In this document: positions 7,031 to 60,590 of the stretch, one piece after another | Position numbering within the stretch: the stretch's first letter is position 1 | How the letters are laid out: the number at the start of each line of letters is the position of its first letter | Source: a virus | Taxonomy: Duplodnaviria; Caudoviricetes | Length of the DNA stretch: 61,534 nt | Strand: one strand, 5' to 3' | Virus record (IMG/VR): IMGVR_UViG_3300010366_000013 | Coordinates: 1-61,534 of that record | Program-made: the position numbers and the translations under genes | Notes under the pieces: generated by a model | Seen by the model: only the letters and a program-made list of their open reading frames with translations | The model's database searches: none | What the model was told of the DNA's origin: nothing

Positions 7031-7342
7031 TTACCTGCAGGCACGGTCGGTATTACCGCAGTTGCCCGAGGTGCCGCGACGAGGAGCGCGAGGAGCGCGA
7101 TCGGCGGCGTTTGCTCTCCAGTGGTTTCCGGTAGCTCGGGCGACGGCGCCTTCGCGCTGAAGGCATCCGCAGGAGAGCGCCCGGCCGCGGCGCAGCGATC
7201 CGCCGTTTATGGCTTTGGTGACGCCGCAAGCACAGTAGCAGTCCCAGTAGGTGGCGTGGGCGCGCGCGCGCTGGATCGTCGACGGGCCGAGGACGGTGAG
7301 GCGCCCGAAGGTAAGACCGGTTAAATCGATAAACCTAGGCAT
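7031..7342 (-). CDS. N-terminal Zn-binding domain of phage HNH/AP2 endonucleases, without a nuclease domain
   Basis: IDLTGLTFGRLTVL...WDCYCACG...SLRRGRALSCGC; the ORF ends before any HNH motif. Confidence 0.7.
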   Translation of the reverse strand: MPRFIDLTGLTFGRLTVLGPSTIQRARAHATYWDCYCACGVTKAINGGSLRRGRALSCGCLQREGAVARATGNHWRANAADRAPRAPRRGTSGNCGNTDRACR

Positions 7343-7394
7343 TTCCCCGACAGCGGGCGAGCCCGCGGGCCGCCCAGTGCTGGAGCGCCTCGCC

Positions 7395-8189
7395 GTGACC
7401 CTCGATCCCGCACGACCATTCCTCATCTCTCCACCGTTCGGCACATATCTGCGACACACGCGAGCCTATTCAGTGCTGGGTTCCTATACTCGCTTTCCCA
7501 GGCCGGGTCGCTTGGGTCAAGTCTTGCGTACAGTTCGCCCTCTTGGCCGCGAGCCTGGGGGCGAGCCGAAGGGATGGTTGAATAGAGTTGGTCTACGCAA
7601 TCCCGGATGGGATACCTGGTCTGTCGGCCACTATGATAGTTCCTGGTCGATCATATCACTCGCACCGCTCGAAACGACAGATTGGGATCACCTGGAGCGA
7701 TGGCTGGATCAGCGCTTTCACAGTCCGTCTATTGAAATTAACATCTCATGTCCAAACGTAGATGCCCATCCGGAACTGCCAGATAACGCGGTGCTGCAGC
7801 GAATCATTGGCGGTGGGGCAACGATCATCTTTAAGCTGGCACCGGTCTCCTCTTCTGTGACAACGGCATGCTATTTAGCCGATCTCGGAGCGAGATATAT
7901 TCATCTGTCGAATACCCTTCCTACGCCGATCGGTGGTATCAGCGGTGCCGCACTGCGGGAAGCGAATCTTCCATTAATCGAGCGGATCGCGAGAGGATTA
8001 GAAGGGCAGTATGTCGCCAATCGACCGACCGTCGAGATTATCGCCGGAGGTGGTATCTATTCACCCAAGCATCTACATCAGTATCACAACGCCGGAGCCT
8101 CTCGCTTTTCGCTGTCTACTGCATGGTTTTGGCCACCCCGCGCGTTACGTGTGATGAGGAGTTATGGAAGAGCTCCCGGCCGCGGTTAA
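7395..8189 (+). CDS. dihydroorotate dehydrogenase-like FMN TIM-barrel (class 1-like); start uncertain
   Basis: NRVGLRNPG, EINISCPNV (catalytic-Cys loop), FKL, SNT, GGISG, IIAGGGI and AGA motifs. Confidence 0.8.
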   Translation: MTLDPARPFLISPPFGTYLRHTRAYSVLGSYTRFPRPGRLGQVLRTVRPLGREPGGEPKGWLNRVGLRNPGWDTWSVGHYDSSWSIISLAPLETTDWDHLERWLDQRFHSPSIEINISCPNVDAHPELPDNAVLQRIIGGGATIIFKLAPVSSSVTTACYLADLGARYIHLSNTLPTPIGGISGAALREANLPLIERIARGLEGQYVANRPTVEIIAGGGIYSPKHLHQYHNAGASRFSLSTAWFWPPRALRVMRSYGRAPGRG

Positions 8190-8213
8190 GGCCCGGCGGC
8201 CAGGAGCGCCGTA

Positions 8214-9380
8214 GGGTCGCGCACGGGCCAGGGTTCTCGCGTTTGGTCGGGCTCGCGCACTGTTGGGGGTTCTCGCATTAACGAGGGCTCGCGCAGGGAT
8301 CAGGGTTCTCGCTCATATTCGGGCTCGCGCCAGAGACTGGGTTCTCGCCCCACAGTGGGCTCGCGCATGCGTATGGGGTTCTCGCCTCACTCTGGGCTCG
8401 CGCTAGGATCTGGGTTCTCGCTCCGTGGGGGGCTCGCGCTGGCATCTGGGTTCTCGCTCCCTTGGGGGATCGCGCTACGTTCGGGGGGTTCTTGCCCTCT
8501 TTGGGGCTCGCGCAGCTACTAGGGTTTCTCGCACCACTGTGGGCTCGCGCAAGGGCTTGGGTTCTCGCTCCCTGCTGGGCTCGCGCTCTCAGTAGGGTTC
8601 TCGCGCCCTGCTGGGCTCGCGCAGCGGATCTGGGTTCTCGCTAGAGGCAGGGCTCGCGCGCAGGGGTCTGAGTTTCTCGCTAGTAGGGGGGCTCGCGCTG
8701 TGTGTCGGGTTCGCGCAGCACATTGGGCTCGCGCGCTTTTCTGGGTTCTCGCGGGGCACGGGGCTCGCGCTCGAGACAGGGTTCTCGCCGTTCTTTGGGC
8801 TCGCGCATACAACTGGGCTCTCGCGCAACTGTGGGCTCGCGCAACACGCTGGGTTCTCGCCGCATCTAGGGCTCGCGCTGAATTTCGGGTTCTCGCGCAG
8901 CATCGGGCTCGCGCTGCATATCGGGTTCTCGCCGGACTCCGGGCTCGCGCTGAATTTCGGGTTCTCGCGCCACTCAGGGCTCGCGCCATCAACTGGGTTC
9001 TCGCGTCAACAAGGGCTCGCGCTCGGGACTGGGTTCTCGCCTTTGGTTGGGCTCGCGCACCTACTAGGGTTTCTCGCGGCACACTGGGCTCGCGCTGGCG
9101 ATGGGGTTCTCGCAAGATCCTGGGCTCGCGCATATCGCAGGGTTCTCGCCGAGTTTAGGGCTCGCGCAAGCATCAGGGTTTCTCGCAGTTCTTAGGGCTC
9201 GCGCATTCACTAGGGTTCTCGCAAACGTCCGGGCTCGCGCTGGTGGTGTGGTTCTCGCAAGATACTGGGCTCGCGCTTCGTTCAGGGTTCTCGCGTTTGG
9301 TTGGGCTCGCGCGTACAGTTGGGTTCTCGCGCGACTGTGGGCTCGCGCACCCTATAGGGTTTCTCGCGTGTGGCTGGGCT
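8214..9380 (-). ncRNA. TIGR-like dual-repeat guide RNA array, 32 units of about 36 nt
   Basis: minus strand: GCGCGAGCCC-N8-GCGAGAACCC-N8 repeated; 32 loop repeats counted by hand from 8231 to 9357; spacers variable; abuts the stop codon of the Nop-domain gene. Confidence 0.9.
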
Positions 9381-10225
9381 TAGGCTGGTATGGGCGGCGG
9401 GATGTAGTCCGCGTGCCCGAGGTGGGCCTGCGCGAAGGGCGCGACCGGCGTCTGTCCGGTGCGGATTAACCAGATCTCGTTCATGTGCGACAGGAATAGC
9501 TTGACCGCCCAGCGCCGCGCCCGGCCGTCGATCTGCGAGGGCGGCAGTCGCCCGGCGCTGTAATGCTTGAAAGCTTCAGTCTTTGCGCCGACGCGCGGTA
9601 GCCACTCCTTGGCGGTTTCGGCGCGCTTGCCCTCGTCCGACATGCGCTGTTCGAACGCCTTGCGCTCGCGGTAGAGCCGCCCGTAGAAGCAGTCGTCGCG
9701 GTTGGAGAGCTTCATAAACGACTGCCCGGCGTGCCAGCACAACGTTTTGAGTTGCGTGTTGTACGGGCGCTTCTCATTGCGCGACCAGGGCTTCTGACCG
9801 TCTGCGGCGAGGCCGGCGAAGGCATAGATCCTGCCCGCCGTGGGGCGCGGCGTCTCGAGGTGCGCCAGGATACCGGCGCTGATCACGGGGCCAATGCCGA
9901 CGATCTCGCGCATCCACGAACCCATGACGTGCTCCTGGGTGTACTGGTCGAGGGCGCGTTTGATTTGCGCCTCGAGGATTTTCGACTGAGAGAACAGCCA
10001 ATCGATGAGGACATGCGGCTCGGGCTGTTCGCTTGTTTGCAGCGCTCGCGCCTGATTGGCTGCGCGTTTGCGGTTCTCCTGGCTGGTGTAGTACGCGTCG
10101 ACCAAAAAGCGCGCCTCTTTCGGGCCCATCGTGCGCGCTGCCTGGGCGAGATCGCGGGTTAGCCGGACGATGGCCGGCGCGTGTTCGATGGTCTCGTCGT
10201 CGTCGACGTATGCCGCAAAGGCCAT
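9380..10225 (-). CDS. tasA: TasA-like Nop-domain RNA-guided DNA-binding protein (IS110/Nop-related, no nuclease domain), 281 aa
   Basis: coiled coil (LVDAYY..QENRKR..NQ...LEAQIKRAL), then IVGIGPVISAGIL, IYAFAGL, PYNTQLKT, YGRLYRERK and ARRWAVKLFLSH; no N-terminal DEDD/RuvC or HNH domain; GGAGG RBS before ATG 10225. Confidence 0.85.
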   Translation of the reverse strand: MAFAAYVDDDETIEHAPAIVRLTRDLAQAARTMGPKEARFLVDAYYTSQENRKRAANQARALQTSEQPEPHVLIDWLFSQSKILEAQIKRALDQYTQEHVMGSWMREIVGIGPVISAGILAHLETPRPTAGRIYAFAGLAADGQKPWSRNEKRPYNTQLKTLCWHAGQSFMKLSNRDDCFYGRLYRERKAFEQRMSDEGKRAETAKEWLPRVGAKTEAFKHYSAGRLPPSQIDGRARRWAVKLFLSHMNEIWLIRTGQTPVAPFAQAHLGHADYIPPPIPA

Positions 10226-10253
10226 GGTTCCTCCCGCGTCAGCGTTTGGTGGC

Positions 10254-10283
10254 AGGGTAGAGGATGGTTGCATGCCTGGCAAC
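10254..10283 (-). promoter_or_regulatory. promoter of the tas-TIGR transcript overlapped by a 17-bp operator
   Basis: TTGCCA-N17-TACCCT on the minus strand; GTTGCATGCCTGGCAAC at 10267-10283. Confidence 0.7.
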
Positions 10284-10297
10284 AATACGCCCGTAGA

Positions 10298-10510
10298 TCA
10301 TTGTAGCTTGTCCACCTGACGGATTATTTCGGCCTCGCCCAGCACCTTCCAGGGGATGTCGTTAAAGGCGTGTGTCGCGAAGGCGGCCCGGGCAACGTCG
10401 AGGTCGATGCCGCGGTCGCGCGCGGCGCGCTTGCACGCCGGCCACAGGATCGCGCGATCGACCCGGCGCAGGTAGGCGTAGTAGAACGCAAGCAACCAGC
10501 GGAAGGTCAT
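10298..10510 (-). CDS. hypothetical protein
   Basis: MTFRWLLAFYYAYLRRVDRAILWP...; GGAGG RBS. Confidence 0.6.
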   Translation of the reverse strand: MTFRWLLAFYYAYLRRVDRAILWPACKRAARDRGIDLDVARAAFATHAFNDIPWKVLGEAEIIRQVDKLQ

Positions 10511-10575
10511 ACCAGCCCCCTCCGTAAGCCAATGGCCGAGGGTAGGGGTTGGCGCAGTCGTATGCAACGGCTATA

Positions 10576-23633: not shown

Positions 23634-24794
23634 ATGCTCGGAGGACAAGGCATCGGTTTGCCACCGCCGCAGGGGCTTTGGTATCCGCTACCCATCAACC
23701 AGAACTACCAGCCGCTCGGATCCGCCTTCGAGGTCGCTGGTGGCACCGCGCTCTACGTGCCGCCCGGCTGGTGGTACATCCGCACCGGCAACTACACCCA
23801 GATCCAGTGGCTCGATCCGGTATCGGGGCAATGGATCCCGATCACCAGCATCGGCCCGGCGCTGTACGCCATGCAATCCGATGGCAACACGCTGCGCATC
23901 GTCAATCCGACCGGCAACCCCATCGGCGGGCTCGTCACCAACGTCGGTTCGAACTACGTTCAGGCGTCGACGGTCGTCACCCTGTCGGTCGGCAACTCGC
24001 AATGGCGCGCGATTGTCGGCGGCGCGCTGACCGCAATCGCCGTCGGCAACGACCCGAACGGCACCGCCGGCGGCACGAACTTCTCGGTGCCGCCGATCGT
24101 CGATATCCCGGCCCCGCCAGCGGGCGGCGTGCAGGCGACCGCAAACGCCACGATCACGGCGGGTGCCGTCACGGCGATCACGCTCATCAACCAGGGTGCC
24201 GGCTATCCTGCCGGCGGGCTGACGACGCAGCCGGTTATCCGGCCGAATCCGTTCGATCCGAACATCGGCTTGATCACCGTGCCGGCGCTCACCGCGACGG
24301 TGGGCGGCGCGGGGCAGATCGCGGCGGTGCTGTGCACCAACTACGGCTCGGTGCTGACCGGCGCGCAAATGGCCGCAGCGACCCTTACGATCGCCGGTGC
24401 GGGCACCGCAGCGACGGCAAACCCGCTCTTCGCCGAGGCTGTGCAGTCGGTTGCGCTGAGCGCCGGCGGCGGCGCGGGTTATCCCGGTACGGCGGTCGAT
24501 ATCGACACCGTGGCGGCGGCCTCGCTCGGCACGCCCGGCGCGATTGTCAATCCGGCTGTCTCGACCAAGCTCTTCACCCCGCGACGCGCGCTGATCTCGT
24601 CTGTTGTTACGGGCGGTGTCGTGCAAGCGGCGAACATCAGCGACGGCGGTCTGTTTATGGCGGCACCGGCGGCGCTGGTCGTCGCGACGGCTGCAGCCTC
24701 GGCCGGTCTGCCGACGACCGCCACCGCGGCGACGCTGACGATGGGTGCCGTGACCGACACGGTCTTCCTGCAGGCGATGGGAGGCGCTTTCTAA
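23634..24794 (+). CDS. virion structural protein (decoration/head fibre-like)
   Basis: Gly/Ala/Thr-rich beta protein following the capsid gene. Confidence 0.65.
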   Translation: MLGGQGIGLPPPQGLWYPLPINQNYQPLGSAFEVAGGTALYVPPGWWYIRTGNYTQIQWLDPVSGQWIPITSIGPALYAMQSDGNTLRIVNPTGNPIGGLVTNVGSNYVQASTVVTLSVGNSQWRAIVGGALTAIAVGNDPNGTAGGTNFSVPPIVDIPAPPAGGVQATANATITAGAVTAITLINQGAGYPAGGLTTQPVIRPNPFDPNIGLITVPALTATVGGAGQIAAVLCTNYGSVLTGAQMAAATLTIAGAGTAATANPLFAEAVQSVALSAGGGAGYPGTAVDIDTVAAASLGTPGAIVNPAVSTKLFTPRRALISSVVTGGVVQAANISDGGLFMAAPAALVVATAAASAGLPTTATAATLTMGAVTDTVFLQAMGGAF

Positions 24795-32918: not shown

Positions 32919-34178
32919 ATGTGCAGTGGCGCGGGCATCGGCGGCGGCATCGGCGGCATTCTCGGCGGTCTGGCTGATGCCGGGCTTGCGGTTTTCGCCC
33001 CGGAGCTCGCCATCCCGCTGGCGCTGGCGACCGGTGCCGGCGGTTTCCTCGGCGGGACGGCTGGTGGCCTAGCGAGCGGTGAAAAGCTCGGCCCCTCTTT
33101 AATCAGCGGCGCCGAATCCGGTGGAATCGGCGCTCTGACCGCCGGGGCCGGGAACGTCCTCGCCGGCGGCGATTTCCTTGGCGGCCCAGCCTCCAGCCTT
33201 ACGAGTTTGTTTGGCGGTTCCACGCCGGCCGCGGCATCGGACACCGCCGCAGCGGCGGGCACCGCAGCAGCGGGTGCTGCATCGGACACCGCAGCCGCCG
33301 CTGGGGGCGCCGCCGCAGCTACCCCGGCTGCGACCACTCTCACCGCGACGGCACCGTCGACCGGCACGGCGCTATCGACCGCCGCGCCAACGGCGGTTGG
33401 TGCTGGGGCTGGTGGTGGCGGTGCGCCGCTCGCTGCATCGACGGGCGCGATCGACAACACCTCGATAAACCCATTTGCCAGCCTGTCGGGAGCGACGCCG
33501 ACGGCTGGCAGCGGCGTTAGCCCGACATCGAGCGGTAGTGGTATTGGGGGTTGGCTGTCGAAGCTCTGGTCTGGGTCGGGCTCGGGCACTTGGGCCACAG
33601 ACGCGTCCGGTAACCCGGTTCCGCTCGGCTCACCGGGGGTTACCAATGCTGGCGGTGGCAGTGACACCGGTGGCATTAGTGGCTGGCTCGGCAAAACGCT
33701 CACCAGCCCGAGCACGCTGATCGCCGGCGGCGCAGCGGCGCTGCCGTTGATCATGGGGCAAGGTAAGATCCCTGGCCTATCCAGCCTGCAAGCAAACGCC
33801 AATTTTCTGAACACGACCGGCCAACAGATGGCGGATTCGCTACGGACAGGCATGCTGCCAGCGGGAGCTCAAGCGGGGCTCGACGCATCGGCGCGGGCGG
33901 CGAAGGCGCAGGTGGCCAGCACATACGCGTCGATGGGTCTTTCGGGGTCGAGCATGGAAGCCGACGCGATGGCCAACATCGACCAGCGGGTCGCGGCGCA
34001 AAGGTATCAAGAACTCGTGGACGCGACGAAGACCGGGCTCGACGCGGTCGGGCAAGCATCGCCGCTCTACACCACGATAATGAACACGCAGATCGCGCAG
34101 GATAAGGCGACGCAGGACGCCATCGCGCGGCTCGCCGCGGCGCTCGCTGGTGGCACGGGTGCCGCCAAGGCGGCGTAA
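32919..34178 (+). CDS. internal virion / DNA ejection protein
   Basis: MCSG start, Gly/Ala-rich N-terminus, MGLSGSS motif and helical C-terminus. Confidence 0.65.
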   Translation: MCSGAGIGGGIGGILGGLADAGLAVFAPELAIPLALATGAGGFLGGTAGGLASGEKLGPSLISGAESGGIGALTAGAGNVLAGGDFLGGPASSLTSLFGGSTPAAASDTAAAAGTAAAGAASDTAAAAGGAAAATPAATTLTATAPSTGTALSTAAPTAVGAGAGGGGAPLAASTGAIDNTSINPFASLSGATPTAGSGVSPTSSGSGIGGWLSKLWSGSGSGTWATDASGNPVPLGSPGVTNAGGGSDTGGISGWLGKTLTSPSTLIAGGAAALPLIMGQGKIPGLSSLQANANFLNTTGQQMADSLRTGMLPAGAQAGLDASARAAKAQVASTYASMGLSGSSMEADAMANIDQRVAAQRYQELVDATKTGLDAVGQASPLYTTIMNTQIAQDKATQDAIARLAAALAGGTGAAKAA

Positions 34179-34181
34179 CCG

Positions 34182-36833
34182 ATGGCCACCACCGCGACAG
34201 ATACCCCCGACACCAAGAATTTCACGCCGCCGCCCGCGACGCCGAATTACCTGACCCCATCACCCGGTTCCCCGCAGCGCGCGCCGGATCCGGCGTCATC
34301 AGTCGATGGCGCGGTCAGGCAACTGCAGGCGCAGGGAGTAATCGGCACTGGGACGAAGGTCGGGGCCGCACTGCCTGGCGCGGGGGCTGCTGGTGCCGCT
34401 ACCCCAGCACCGGCAACGCCCGCCGGCGGCACCGCGGCCACCACGACGCAGAGCGCCACGCCGACCGCGCCAGCGGACGGTTCCCTCGTCACGCCGCAGG
34501 CCGTTACCGATTTCCTGGCGCAGCCGAACCCGCGGTTCGATGCGTTCTGGGCGAAGATGACGCCGCGCGAAAGCGGCGGTAAAGACGTGCCGAATTTCCG
34601 CTACGACCCGACCCATACGGCGAGCGGCCCAGCGCAGATTACCGACACCAACTGGAAGGATTGGGCACCGCGCCTCGGGATCGATATCAAGCGGTTCCCG
34701 ACTGCGATGTCGGCCAAGCCTGAATGGCAGAAGGCGGTCACGAAGCTCGGCTGGATGATGTACGGCGAGACGCCGTGGGACGCCGCGCACGGCGGCTCGC
34801 TGCCTGTCACCGGGCAGGGTGGATCTCAGGGGATCCAGTATCCCGGGGCTGATAGCGCCGCCAAAATAAACGAGCTCTACGGAACGAAGGCGGCTGATCT
34901 CGACAAGAGAGTGGCGGCAGCAACCGCGAAGATCAATTCGATGGACGGCGACATCGGCGAGATGAGGAAGCGCATCCTCGCGGCGCGTGACCAGGCCGAC
35001 GCGGCGCAGGACAACGCCATGAAGGCGATTGCCAAGGCGCCAGCAAACCCCGAGATCGACGGAATTAAGCACGCCAGCGGACTCGCCACGATCATCGGTA
35101 TCCTCGGCGGCGCGCTGACCAAACACCCGATGCTTGCGAGCGCGAACGCGGCGGCGGCGGCGATCGAGTCGTACAACGCGGGCGACCTCAACAACTACAA
35201 GATCGCCTACCAGAATTGGAAAACGCAGACCGACCTGTTGTTCAAGGTCGCGGACATGAACGCGACCCGCGTCAAAGACATCATGGACGAGGAGAAGCTG
35301 CCGCTCGAGGAAAAGAGGCTACAGGTTGATTTGTACTTGCGCGCGGCCGGGTTGGAGCAACTCGCCGACCAGGCTCGGATCGAGGGGCCGAAAGCCGTCC
35401 TCGATTGGCAAACGACGATGTACAACGCGGTCGAACAGGCGCGTACCCACCGCGAAGAAATGGAGATGAACAATTGGTATCGCCTGCAGTCGCTCGATCG
35501 CCCGGTTCCGCAGGTCGATAAAGAAGGCAACCCCGGTCTGTACTACCCCTACTCAAGGCGGTGGGAGCCGACGCCGGGCATGCCGGTGGGTAAGGGCGCG
35601 GGGGCGACGGCGGCCGGCGATCTCGACCGCGCGGTCAATTCCCAGTACCAGGCGTGGTTGCAGACTGATGAGGGTAAAAACGCCACCGATGCTCAAAAAG
35701 ATCAGAAGAAGGTCGCGATCCGGCAGGATTTGGTAAACCAAGGAAAAGGTGGCCCGTCCGGACAGGCAGCGAGAGACGTCAACAACGCGGTCGAAACCGA
35801 GTTGAACTTTTGGCGTAAGACCCCCGAAGGTCAGAAGGCTGACGACCTCCAAATCGCCCAGAAGCGCGTCGAGTTGCGCGGCAAATACGCCACTGAGGTC
35901 AAAGGCGGCAAAGTTGCCGACTTGTCGGCTGTCCTTGATGCTGACGTGGCGGATTATGTCGCCGCACACCCGGGCGCCAGCGGGCCCGAAATCGCCAAGG
36001 CTCGCTTCGATGCCCGCGTAAATCGCGAGACGGAAGAAAAGCAGCGTGCGAGCGGGAAGCTGAGCGACGCCGCGGTCGATATTCTGGCGCGACGCTGGAT
36101 CATGGGTGACCCCGGGGCGATCACCTCAATGCCGCGCACGGGCATCGCGCGTATTCAGGTCGAAAACCGGATCGGCGAATTGCTGAAAGACGAGCCGGAC
36201 GCCGCTCGCATTACGATTACGAACCGTATGCGTATGCTCGAAGCCGAGGCGGCGGCGCGCACCGCTGGCCGCGTGACGATGCAGACCGAGATCTTTTCAC
36301 AGGAAGCCATCAAGGCCGGCGCCGAGGTGGTGCGTACCTCAAAGCTCGTCCCGCGCACCGACACACCGATGTTCAACGAGGCGCTCAACGCGTTTTATCG
36401 GCAGGAAGGCGACCCCAACATCATCGCGTTCGGCGCCGCCCTCAATGCGTTCGTCAACGCTTACGGCAAGCTGTCAAACCCGACCGGCACCGGCATCCAC
36501 GACCACGACAAGGATGCTTTGCGCGACACGATCAACGCAGCGCTGTCCCAAGGACAAATCGAAGCCGGCGTGGAACAGGTCATCACCGAGGGGCGCATCG
36601 TCTCGGCTGCGGCGGAAGCGGCGCAATTCAAGGTGATCGGCACTATGGTTCCGCCCACGCCCGGCCAGCCAGCGCCAGCCGCGGCACCCGCGCCCGCGGC
36701 TGCGCCACCCGTCCCGCCGTCGCTAAAGCCGTTCCAAGACCAGCACGATTTGCAACGAGATCCGGCATCGGGCCAGTATCGCAGGAAGAGTACCGGACAG
36801 GTCTACGACGCGAACGGTAACCCGGTGCAGTAA
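34182..36833 (+). CDS. internal virion protein with a lysozyme-like transglycosylase domain
   Basis: RESGG...ASGPAQITDTNW...AMSA.PEWQ...YGETPW. Confidence 0.75.
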   Translation: MATTATDTPDTKNFTPPPATPNYLTPSPGSPQRAPDPASSVDGAVRQLQAQGVIGTGTKVGAALPGAGAAGAATPAPATPAGGTAATTTQSATPTAPADGSLVTPQAVTDFLAQPNPRFDAFWAKMTPRESGGKDVPNFRYDPTHTASGPAQITDTNWKDWAPRLGIDIKRFPTAMSAKPEWQKAVTKLGWMMYGETPWDAAHGGSLPVTGQGGSQGIQYPGADSAAKINELYGTKAADLDKRVAAATAKINSMDGDIGEMRKRILAARDQADAAQDNAMKAIAKAPANPEIDGIKHASGLATIIGILGGALTKHPMLASANAAAAAIESYNAGDLNNYKIAYQNWKTQTDLLFKVADMNATRVKDIMDEEKLPLEEKRLQVDLYLRAAGLEQLADQARIEGPKAVLDWQTTMYNAVEQARTHREEMEMNNWYRLQSLDRPVPQVDKEGNPGLYYPYSRRWEPTPGMPVGKGAGATAAGDLDRAVNSQYQAWLQTDEGKNATDAQKDQKKVAIRQDLVNQGKGGPSGQAARDVNNAVETELNFWRKTPEGQKADDLQIAQKRVELRGKYATEVKGGKVADLSAVLDADVADYVAAHPGASGPEIAKARFDARVNRETEEKQRASGKLSDAAVDILARRWIMGDPGAITSMPRTGIARIQVENRIGELLKDEPDAARITITNRMRMLEAEAAARTAGRVTMQTEIFSQEAIKAGAEVVRTSKLVPRTDTPMFNEALNAFYRQEGDPNIIAFGAALNAFVNAYGKLSNPTGTGIHDHDKDALRDTINAALSQGQIEAGVEQVITEGRIVSAAAEAAQFKVIGTMVPPTPGQPAPAAAPAPAAAPPVPPSLKPFQDQHDLQRDPASGQYRRKSTGQVYDANGNPVQ

Positions 36834-38689
36834 TGGCTTGGACTGACGTACCAGCGACACCCGCGACACCCACACCAGCGGCACCGCCAGCCGGTGGTGC
36901 AGGGAATTGGGTCGACGTGCCGGCTGCACCTGCGGCGTCGCCGTCCACCGAAAAGCCGATGTTCAGCGGCCCGCTGATCTCAGACGAGGCGATGTACCAC
37001 GGGCTCATCGCGCCGATCGTCAATCAACTCGATTACCCGGTGCGCGCGGCTGCGGCAGATCTGGCTGCGTCCGCCCCAGCGATGGCTTCCCTCGCGACCG
37101 GCGGGGTCGCCCCGGCAGGCACCCTCGATCAGTGGTGGAAGGTGCGCGACGCGATCGTCAATGCCACCGAGCTCCCCGAAAACAAGTTCGGCCACGGGAT
37201 CTCAGAGGCGATCGGTTTCATCCCCGGGCTCGGGGCGAAAGCCGTACATGGCCTATCCGAGTCTTTGCTCGGCAAAAACATCACCGCAGCGCTCGGCCCG
37301 GCCGCGCAGACCATTACCGATGTGATGCCGTTCCGCGGGCACGCGGTCAGAGACGCGGTTAGAGACACGGTCAGACCGCCGCCGACACCGATGAGGCCAC
37401 TTCCGGCTGTCGAGGGAGCGCAAGGCGCTGGATACAGGCTCGCCCCTGAGATGGCCTCGGAATCGCCCAGCCTGTTTTCGCATCTGATATCGGCGACGGG
37501 GAAAATCAAAAAGGAACAGGAGTTCTCTTACCACAATCAGGAAAACACCGACCGGCTCACGAGGCGGTCGCTCGGCTTGCCCGAGGGCACTTTCCTCGAC
37601 GAGGCGGCGTTTGAGCGGGCGCGCCAGCCGGCGATTAATGCCTATCGCGCACTGGAAGCTGCGGTGCCTGAGATTGTGACCACCGCCGACCCGCGTTTCC
37701 GAGCGGAAATCTCTCGCGCTGGTGCGCGATTGGACGCGCTAGAGGCTGAATACCCCGAAACGAGGAAAAACCCGGATGTTGTAGAGTTGCGGCAAGATAT
37801 GACGCGCTTCCCGGTCAACTCGCCCACTGCCGTGCGCCAACGGATCGCCGAGCTCCGCGAAAAAGCCGGCCGCAATTTCCGCAAGCAGGATGACGCTCAT
37901 GCCCATCAACTTGGGATGGCGCAGCGCGAGGCGGCGATTGCACTCGAAGACGCGGTCGAGCGCTCCATCATGTACAGCCCAGAACAAATCCGCGCGATGA
38001 GGGATGTTTATTCGGCCCAGCAAGAGATCTCGCGATATCAGGAAATGGTGCGTGAAGGGTCGCGCGCTACGGGAGAACCGGTCGACGTGCAGGGCGCACG
38101 AGCGCGGCTGCGTGATGCGCAGGTGCGGGTCGTCCGTAGCTCATTGATCGATCCTGCACGCCGTGCTCGTGCAGAACAGATCTTGGCGAACTTTCGGCAG
38201 GGACGGGAGTTGTTCGCCCGCAGCTACGATCTCGAGTTGGCGACAAACTTCGCCGACGGCCATGTCAGTGCGCGCCGCGTGTCAAACCTACGATCGGGCG
38301 CGCTGAAGCGCAATCTGAGCGGCGAGATGGAGCAAATCGCCAATGCGTACGATTCGTTTCGGAAAGTGATGCAGGATCCAGAGAGTTTTGGCGCGCGAGA
38401 AGCATGGAGCATTCTCGATTTGGCTGGGGCAACCGCTTCATTAGCTACCGGGCACTTCGCGCCAGCCATCGCTACCGGCATGCGGTGGCCGACGCGCGCC
38501 ATGCTGGCGTCGAGGTGGTATCAGGACGTGATGCGGAACCGATACAATCGCCAGGTCAACCCACCAACGCGGGTTCCGACATCACCCATGAGCGGCTATG
38601 TGCAGGGCACCCTGGCACAACCGGAACAGCCAGACCCGTCCGATATATCGTGGCGCTACGCCTTCCCGGCTGGGGTGTCGTCGCCGTAA
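36833..38689 (+). CDS. large internal virion / ejection protein
   Basis: 618 aa, MAWTDVP N-terminus, third of the ejection gene trio. Confidence 0.65.
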   Translation: MAWTDVPATPATPTPAAPPAGGAGNWVDVPAAPAASPSTEKPMFSGPLISDEAMYHGLIAPIVNQLDYPVRAAAADLAASAPAMASLATGGVAPAGTLDQWWKVRDAIVNATELPENKFGHGISEAIGFIPGLGAKAVHGLSESLLGKNITAALGPAAQTITDVMPFRGHAVRDAVRDTVRPPPTPMRPLPAVEGAQGAGYRLAPEMASESPSLFSHLISATGKIKKEQEFSYHNQENTDRLTRRSLGLPEGTFLDEAAFERARQPAINAYRALEAAVPEIVTTADPRFRAEISRAGARLDALEAEYPETRKNPDVVELRQDMTRFPVNSPTAVRQRIAELREKAGRNFRKQDDAHAHQLGMAQREAAIALEDAVERSIMYSPEQIRAMRDVYSAQQEISRYQEMVREGSRATGEPVDVQGARARLRDAQVRVVRSSLIDPARRARAEQILANFRQGRELFARSYDLELATNFADGHVSARRVSNLRSGALKRNLSGEMEQIANAYDSFRKVMQDPESFGAREAWSILDLAGATASLATGHFAPAIATGMRWPTRAMLASRWYQDVMRNRYNRQVNPPTRVPTSPMSGYVQGTLAQPEQPDPSDISWRYAFPAGVSSP

Positions 38690-59513: not shown

Positions 59514-59712
59514 GGTCGGGCCACAGCCCGTTGTATTTTATGCGCTGCGCCATAATCAGCGTGCCGTGGTGGGTCGCGACGTTGAACCTGGCGCCACACG
59601 GCTTGCACTCGATGTTCGTCGACCGACCGCCCGACGGCCCGCGCCAGAAACGATTGTCGCCGCAATCGGGGCAGCGGTGCGCCGCCAGCGTTTCGAGGCC
59701 GGCGTCGATCAT
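59485..59712 (-). CDS. zinc-ribbon protein
   Basis: CPDCG...GPSGG.STNIECKPCG.RFNV. Confidence 0.7.
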   Translation of the reverse strand: MIDAGLETLAAHRCPDCGDNRFWRGPSGGRSTNIECKPCGARFNVATHHGTLIMAQRIKYNGLWPDRGDWWLEER

Positions 59713-60590
59713 CGCCGCGGTAGGTCTACGTTCGCCATCAGCGGCTGGCGCAGACCGCGGTTGATCGCGCGCAGGAGCCCGGTCGCGTATGCGCGCGCAC
59801 CGCCCTTGCTATCGAGCATCCCCATCTTGCGGATCTCCTCGACGATATTCGCGTGTCCGGTGCGGGCAATGCGCTCCCGCCACCTGTCGTCGGCGAGCGA
59901 CTCACCGCGGGGCATGCAGCGCTCGAGGTGATGGAATGCCCACAGGATGCGCGCCGGCATCGGATGACCGGCGCAGACCTGTGCGGCGAGCGGGAACACC
60001 CGTTCCATCGCCGCGGTGTTGGTGCGCAGCATCGTCGCGAACGCGCTGACGCAGGTGATGTGCTGCGCATCCGCGGGGATGCCGATCGTGCGGCTGTGGG
60101 ATTCCGCCAGCGCCGTCATCCGCATCGCGATCGGGTCGCCGGCCATGATGAGCGCCTTGAATTGATCGCTGATCGTCGGCATGCGCCGGTTCGTGTTGGA
60201 AGCCAGAAACGCAATGGCCTCGTCTCGGACAGTGTCGAGCTCGAAAATTATGCAAGGCAATTCCTTGATGTGCGCCAGATACGACGCCGCCTTGAGCCGG
60301 TGTTGCCCATCCACCACAAAGTAAATTGTCGACCCGGGACGCCTGCTAACTTCCAAGACGCCGCAGGATGTCCAGTTCCAGTTCGCCGCCATAACCGCGA
60401 CCTGGCGCTCGTTAAGTTTGCGCTGGTACTGGCTGTCGATGGAGAGGCGCGCCTTGGCGATGCTCACCTGCACGCCTGGCTCGTTTTTCAGCGGCACGAA
60501 ATTCTGGCGCAGCGGCGACGCCGTCGTCGTCGGGATCAGTGTCGTCGCGGCACCAGCACGGCTTTGGAGAATTGCGGTATCGGCGGCCAT
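59709..60590 (-). CDS. ParB/Srx-like N-terminal domain protein (DUF6551-like)
   Basis: LSIDSQYQR, VVDGQHRLKAA and EA..F...N motifs. Confidence 0.8.
   Translation of the reverse strand: MAADTAILQSRAGAATTLIPTTTASPLRQNFVPLKNEPGVQVSIAKARLSIDSQYQRKLNERQVAVMAANWNWTSCGVLEVSRRPGSTIYFVVDGQHRLKAASYLAHIKELPCIIFELDTVRDEAIAFLASNTNRRMPTISDQFKALIMAGDPIAMRMTALAESHSRTIGIPADAQHITCVSAFATMLRTNTAAMERVFPLAAQVCAGHPMPARILWAFHHLERCMPRGESLADDRWRERIARTGHANIVEEIRKMGMLDSKGGARAYATGLLRAINRGLRQPLMANVDLPRR

Follow-up and report, generated by a model that had tools for sequence, protein, structure and literature searches.

A TIGR-TasA locus with a long dual-repeat array in the genome of a soil phage

What does a phage do with a small gene that runs without a gap into 32 units of two alternating short repeats and variable spacers? 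The question is raised by positions 8214 to 10283 of the IMG/VR virus record IMGVR_UViG_3300010366_000013. The stretch analysed here, hereafter the window, is this entire record, of 61,534 bases. A first-pass annotation, made from the letters alone, had read the locus as a phage-borne system of the tandem interspaced guide RNA (TIGR) type, in which a Tas protein works with guides (tigRNAs) processed from a dual-repeat array. TIGR-Tas systems are recently described, compact RNA-guided DNA binders that are free of a protospacer-adjacent motif. We hold with high confidence that the locus is a dual-repeat TIGR-TasA system of a temperate soil phage, for which we propose a mechanism of tigRNA-guided binding. 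It cannot be counted as a discovery. An exact search of the supplements of Faure et al. 2025 (PMC12045711) with the TasA stretch gave one match, a row of their Table S1 that holds the identical sequence of 281 amino acids (aa) under the coordinates 9379_10225_-1, i.e. at the same place and on the same strand. Hence, the locus was already known as a catalogued member of the published TIGR-Tas family and adds no new kind of system.

The Tas protein and its dual-repeat array

The tasA gene (9380..10225, minus strand) opens with an ATG and encodes a nuclease-free Tas protein of 281 aa, made of a coiled-coil hairpin and a Nop-type RNA-binding domain. A Shine-Dalgarno-like GGGAGGA (10229..10235, minus strand), read from the sequence, lies 3 nucleotides (nt) ahead of the ATG at 10225; an alternative TTG start at 10285 would extend the protein to 301 aa. 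The motifs named in the first-pass annotation are all present in the translation (GIGPVISAGIL, FAGL, YNTQLK, YRERK and ARRWAVK). With the curated NCBIfam model NF052498.1 (TIGR_Tas_endo, 'TIGR-Tas system RNA-guided endonuclease') the protein scores 172.5 bits, well past the cut-off of 100, in an alignment that places profile positions 1-214 of 215 on TasA residues 38-252. Sequence searches of the PDB gave TasR 9mty_A as best match (E 1.2e-11), with TasH 21kl_A at E 3.5e-5 and IS621 at E 0.061, and hhalign of the family alignment against SpTasH returned a probability of 97.5% and an E of 6.1e-12 over the Nop domain. The AlphaFold2 model, built from a 45-sequence alignment whose modelled row (P0001) has A166P as its sole difference from the window protein, is all-helical, with a predicted local distance difference test score (pLDDT) of 89.2 and a predicted template-modelling score of 0.84. 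When this model was compared with the PDB by Foldseek, the ten best matches were all TIGR TasH or TasR chains (E 7.9e-7 to 1.8e-5), and the IS110-type recombinases ISCro4 and IS621 ranked next (E about 0.02-0.035). The comparison by profile and structure with Tas, Nop56/58 and IS110 proteins that had been called for at first pass therefore came out on the side of Tas. The Pfam Nop family gave no match on TasA at E <= 10; the relationship between Tas and Nop proteins is one of fold only, and comes from the Tas literature (Faure et al. 2025, PMC12045711).

The same searches bear on another reading, in which the gene is a decayed fragment of an IS110-family transposase lying beside a satellite repeat, with no guide function. 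Weak matches speak for it: Transposase_20 is the only Pfam family hit (17.8 bits), the IS110 model NF033542 (NF033542.1) scores 22.5 bits, and TasA falls in phrog_4285 of PHROGs, labelled 'transposase' (1.3e-30). Yet, the first two scores lie far under their cut-offs (21.3 and 140 bits) whereas the Tas model is passed, and the fold is nearest to TasH and TasR. The gene is moreover intact and conserved in 1915 relatives (homologues at E <= 0.001), and in the relatives whose arrays were compared the repeats are kept while the spacers differ. IS110 bridge-RNA recombinases such as IS621 and ISCro4 do have a coiled coil and a Nop-like RNA-binding domain in common with the window protein, but they also carry DEDD/RuvC and serine catalytic domains, both absent here, and they use a single bridge RNA where the window locus has a guide array. 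We thus consider a transposase remnant very improbable.

Neither Pfam nor NCBIfam found an HNH or RuvC nuclease family in the protein, and its all-helical model of 281 aa leaves no room for one. With the nuclease domain missing, its sequence and predicted fold place it as TasA, the nuclease-free form, as had been proposed at first pass. This sets it apart from its solved relatives. SpTasH of Salicola phage CGphi29 (PDB 9w03, 9w04, 21kl) is phage-borne and dual-repeat, as here, and is the best structural match to the window protein (Foldseek E 7.9e-7, TMq 0.63), but it has an N-terminal HNH nuclease and cuts DNA. TaTasR (PDB 9mty), the best match by sequence in the PDB, ends in a C-terminal motif, GHVDYIKPP, that parallels GHADYIPPP of the window protein; it has, however, an N-terminal RuvC nuclease and 9+9-nt spacers, and window TasA has neither. 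The prediction of a TasA homodimer reached an ipSAE of 0.60, for 0.00 with the best of three controls, through an interface at residues 22-91, i.e. the coiled-coil hairpin. Contact agreement in the homodimer runs was at least 60% and the pLDDT of the partner at least 79. For proteins solved as pairs this mark is attained in 20 of 30 cases, for those solved as single chains in 1 of 23. Since solved Tas dimers exist, this pass may reflect likeness to them and is not independent proof of dimerisation.

The dual-repeat TIGR array occupies 8214..9380 on the minus strand. The pattern GCGCGAGCCC-N8-GCGAGAACCC-N8 has 31 matches on that strand at two mismatches or fewer, all of them in 8231-9348, against an average of 0.02 and never more than 1 in 100 shuffles; no further copies of the unit were found elsewhere in the 61.5-kb record. 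The 32 units comprise 31 full ones and an opening unit whose edge repeat is truncated at its 5' end to AGCCC (9380-9376). This truncated copy derives from GCGCGAGCCC, and therefore GCGCGAGCCC is the edge and GCGAGAACCC the loop, following the anatomy given in Faure et al. 2025 (PMC12045711). There is no gap between the gene (10225-9380) and the array because the last A of the TAA stop codon (9380) is the first base of AGCCC. At its other end the array closes with a degenerate edge at 8223-8214. Within a unit, an 8-nt spacer A comes first, then the loop GCGAGAACCC, a spacer B of mostly 8 nt and finally the edge GCGCGAGCCC. Spacer A has 8 nt in 32/32 units; spacer B does so in 27/32, counting an 11-nt loop variant, GCGAGAAACCC, and has 7-11 nt in the others. 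Unit length is exactly 36 nt in 23 of the 31 full-edge units. Edge and loop are alike in starting with GCG and ending with CCC (GCG....CCC), the loop interior being A-rich (AGAA) and the edge interior able to add a C-G pair. On all these counts, i.e. a 281-aa minus-strand gene running gap-free into 32 units, a mostly exact 36-nt period, two related repeats (GCG.GA.CCC) and 8-nt spacers, the first-pass description stands.

The array fits the published anatomy of dual-repeat TIGR arrays, including the truncated ends and the box-D-like and box-C-like repeat ends. According to Faure et al. 2025 (PMC12045711), TIGR arrays alternate two repeats of 8-12 nt (edge and loop) with spacers of about 9 nt, begin at a 5'-truncated edge, finish at a 3'-truncated edge followed by a terminator, and are processed to 36-nt tigRNAs by cuts within the edge repeat. 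Edge and loop have in common a box-D-like start and a box-C-like end, and TasR arrays have loops with an A-rich interior and edges whose interior can form an extra pair. The same source describes dual-repeat TIGR-TasA systems, e.g. FpTasA of Flavonifractor plautii, which like the window locus pair a solo Nop-domain Tas protein with an array lying downstream of it, whose edge and loop repeats measure about 10 nt and recur every 36 nt, with truncated edges at both ends and a terminal hairpin. Their spacers, however, are 9+9 nt and those of the window 8+8 nt. TasR arrays differ in their repeats, which have UG and CCA where the window repeats start with GCG and end with CCC, and the number of units in TIGR arrays is there given as '5 to 15 most often', against 32 here. 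The suggestion made at first pass that 8-nt spacers and GC-rich repeats may define a distinct variant was not upheld. The 8+8-nt spacers do not set the locus apart because the tigRNA of the Salicola phage (SpTIGR) also has 16 variable nt (PMC12045711), and the same repeats occur in catalogued relatives. Taken together, the passed Tas hidden Markov model, the fold nearest to solved TasH and TasR chains, the published array anatomy and the phage nature of the record sustain the TIGR-Tas reading.

Might the repeat region be translated as a repetitive protein instead? A period of 36 nt equals 12 codons, and the array holds open reading frames (ORFs) of up to 204 aa. But these ORFs lie in several frames and on both strands, and the eight full units of 35 or 37-39 nt break the frame. 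The three longest of them have no significant Pfam match (best E 0.23). Related arrays, finally, hold to 10-nt repeats but let spacer length go from 8 to 9 nt. The chance that the array is a coding sequence is close to negligible.

Proposed mechanism and search for targets

The analysis shows what the protein is and how the array is organised, whereas the steps of the mechanism are inferred by homology to studied Tas systems. Transcription of the gene and the array would run along the minus strand, probably into a single RNA that stops at a GC-rich hairpin (8172..8207, minus strand). This hairpin lies directly 3' of the last edge repeat, has a stem of about 12-14 base pairs (bp) with arms GCUCCUGGCCGC...GCGGCCGGGAGC in the RNA fold of 8235-8140 (minus strand), and is followed by UCUUCC; by this folding it is likely a terminator with a weak U tract. 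A TasA dimer, joined by the coiled-coil hairpin, would bind the box-D-like GCG and box-C-like CCC ends of the repeats. Cleavage of the precursor would then fall within every edge repeat, between GCGCG and AGCCC if the TaTasR tigRNA is taken as a guide, and would release about 32 tigRNAs, each of roughly 36 nt and in the order AGCCC-spacer A-GCGAGAACCC-spacer B-GCGCG. Binding of 36-nt tigRNAs by TasA is described in PMC12045711. Each tigRNA would read a contiguous site of 16 bp, one strand of which consists of spacer A and, after it, spacer B in reverse complement. As TasA lacks a nuclease domain, such a site would be bound, with bending of the DNA or steric repression as the consequence, and would not be cleaved. 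A 2026 preprint (bioRxiv 10.64898/2026.09.09.750476), which re-annotated the 20,096 tas loci of Faure et al. and found 4,126 dual-repeat arrays among them, reports one TasA as a guide-dependent, RNA-guided transcriptional repressor. The most likely role of the phage system would be silencing non-self DNA in the host or competing elements; at first pass, silencing of host defence genes or competing elements had been put forward as a possibility.

Several observations weigh against this reading. Eight of the 31 full units depart from 36 nt. The hairpin at 8207-8172 has no good U tract and went unflagged in a simple terminator scan. Nor did any sigma-70-like promoter come up on the minus strand. 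The TasA for which the preprint reports repression is a different protein, distant from that of the phage. SpTasH cleaves its own precursor via Y289 and H296 (PMC13421893). The latter aligns with His271 of window TasA, which is invariant in 45/45 sequences, but the catalytic Tyr289 aligns with Phe264. Among the 45 sequences this position has F in 20, including the window protein and its close clade, and Y in 25, and thus autonomous processing by the published tyrosine-histidine dyad is not assured. TaTasR, with a W at the position of Y289, also has a non-tyrosine there, and Y274, three residues past His271 (GHADYIPPP), is kept in the window clade and in TaTasR.

The remaining difficulty concerns targets. 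In the tigRNA1 and target oligonucleotides of Table S3 of PMC12045711, one target strand reads spacer A directly followed by spacer B in reverse complement. With this geometry and the array masked, the 32 guides have no site in the phage genome at two mismatches or fewer, and their 11 sites at three mismatches compare with 9.8 +/- 3.1 for shuffled spacer pairings; controls with wrong geometry or shuffled pairs had the same outcome. When the guides of the window and of three related contigs (see below) were searched in all four genomes, 6 sites were found at two mismatches or fewer for 5.85 expected. The search with spacer A plus the reverse complement of spacer B that had been proposed at first pass thus gave nothing beyond chance in these four phage genomes. 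Similarity between A and B spacers shows no excess either, and so gives no sign of palindromic targets. The lone site with one mismatch, that of window unit 23 at 23992-24007 of G003, within a 149-aa ORF, is expected about 0.05 times by chance; it has no clear meaning and was not taken as a target.

These counts are informative on the idea that the system is a self-regulator, in which tigRNAs would act on the genome of the phage itself and so set the timing of lysis and lysogeny or of gene expression. The idea suits a phage that is temperate (integrase, CI-like repressor, RecT, exonuclease), and viral lifecycle regulation is listed as a possible role in the preprint 10.64898/2026.09.09.750476. 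But 0/32 guides with a site at two mismatches or fewer, and a number of three-mismatch sites equal to the null, argue against it. Nothing in these counts indicates self-regulation, or that the four phages target one another, and self-regulation appears improbable. The natural targets and the spacer acquisition of TIGR systems are stated to be unknown in the same preprint.

Relatives and growth of the array

Three viral (phage) contigs encode a TasA 69-75% identical to that of the window and combine the same edge and loop repeats with spacers that are different throughout. The arrays of these contigs are placed upstream or downstream, or occupy both strands. Since they share neither tasA neighbours nor terminase with the window phage, the cassette sits in unrelated phages. 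The contig of L001 has, besides the arrays flanking its tasA, a third and short one built of the same repeats at a distance of about 12 kb from the gene (G001, L006, 208-398, minus strand). Tandem repeats with a period of about 18, 36 or 72 were reported by TRF at 75 of 81 loci (80 viral relatives and the window). The repeats vary by clade, edge and loop changing together, e.g. GAGCGAGCCA with GAGAGAACCA, and related arrays keep 10-nt repeats with spacers of 8 or 9 nt. The longest chains of units parsed in relatives number 33, 26 and 25, so 32 units is long but not unique; the preprint's total of 65,635 tigRNAs over 4,126 dual-repeat arrays averages about 16 units per array (10.64898/2026.09.09.750476). 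The single genome match is a contig of a Nitrosomonas metagenome-assembled genome (L004), with a TasA relative at 54% identity and no TRF-detectable tandem array within 4 kb on either side of it.

How does such an array gain its spacers? The spacers of the window are more alike in register than expected. Pairs of A spacers at one mismatch or fewer number 5 for 0.33 expected, and at two or fewer 13 for 3.3; pairs of B spacers at two or fewer number 10 for 3.6. Whole units differing at no more than 4 of 16 positions make 3 pairs for 0.06 expected. None of 2000 column shuffles, our null for this in-register relatedness, reached the observed counts, and comparisons of A with B spacers showed no excess over expectation. 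Units 4/8 and 2/16 are alike in both halves. Others are alike in one half, with the same B in 12/14, nearly the same A in 22/23 and the same A in 3/10/32. Units 1, 9 and 24 have in common the rare 11-nt loop variant GCGAGAAACCC and related B spacers, which argues for descent by duplication. This suggests that the array grew by duplication of units together with recombination at the repeats, i.e. by shuffling of half-units. One or more close pairs of units were present in 9 of 43 other arrays tested, with p <= 0.05 in 8 of those 9, so the process is occasional rather than universal. The TIGR papers searched on this point make no mention of duplication.

In the window, the GC content of the A spacers is 0.51 and that of the B spacers 0.46, and the genome as a whole has 0.647. 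Across 43 related arrays (from loci L015-L094) mean spacer GC is 0.47 (standard deviation 0.05) while the flanks range from 0.44 to 0.65; spacer GC is lower than flank GC in 38 of the 43, with a slope of 0.39. One might speculate, and we do so tentatively since we would sooner bet against it, that TIGR arrays diversify their guides internally, by duplication of units, re-pairing of half-spacers at loop and edge repeats and point mutation, and not solely by capture of target DNA. A spacer GC near 0.47 would then be a functional or mutational optimum and would not mirror the genome from which spacers came. At position 2, the spacers of the window hardly ever have a T (1/32 for A, 0/27 for B); this avoidance was rejected as a constraint of the family, related arrays being without such a bias.

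The phage and the surroundings of the locus

The window encodes a large terminase, a major head protein, tail proteins, a tyrosine integrase, a CI-like regulator, RecT, an exonuclease and a primase. By its gene content it is a temperate tailed phage, since integrase, CI-like repressor, RecT and exonuclease are all encoded. Its terminase has distant relatives only (at most 35% identity), and tblastn of TasA against 50,697 phage records gave no match. No tRNA gene was found in the record, and no Rfam family matched in the window. AT skew is strongly positive at 34001-38000 (0.26 and 0.16), across an 883-aa ORF (34182-36830, plus strand) that has no PHROG match.

Pieces of this phage were found in soil metagenomes, in four runs from four other studies besides a possible source run; no RNA run was among those listed. 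Stretches of the array, e.g. 8831-9201 and 7820-8439, occur without differences in these other soil runs. Inside the array at 8977-9331, soil contigs of runs X2, X3 and X5 show joints, loose ends and different spacer-like letters. These joints could be true array variants or mis-joins at repeats.

Around the locus, an 89-aa ORF without family match (10298..10567, minus strand) adjoins tasA upstream. It is probably not part of the TIGR-Tas system, because it is not kept beside tasA in relatives. On the other side, a dihydroorotate-dehydrogenase-like gene (7251-8186, plus strand; PF01180, 44.9 bits) converges on the terminal hairpin of the array, and an HNH endonuclease ORF (7034-7459, minus strand) overlaps the 5' part of that gene on the opposite strand. 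Some tasA genes share operons with ParB-like genes (Faure et al. 2025, PMC12045711), and the phage encodes a ParB-like / DUF6551 protein with weak DGQHR similarity (59712-60590, minus strand). We rejected a TasParB operon in this phage because the two genes are about 9 kb apart across the record ends.

A complete temperate-phage genome carrying such a long array is a convenient case for the study of natural tigRNA targets and of spacer gain. The in-register relatedness of its units and the sharing of half-spacers among them bear on how TIGR arrays gain spacers.

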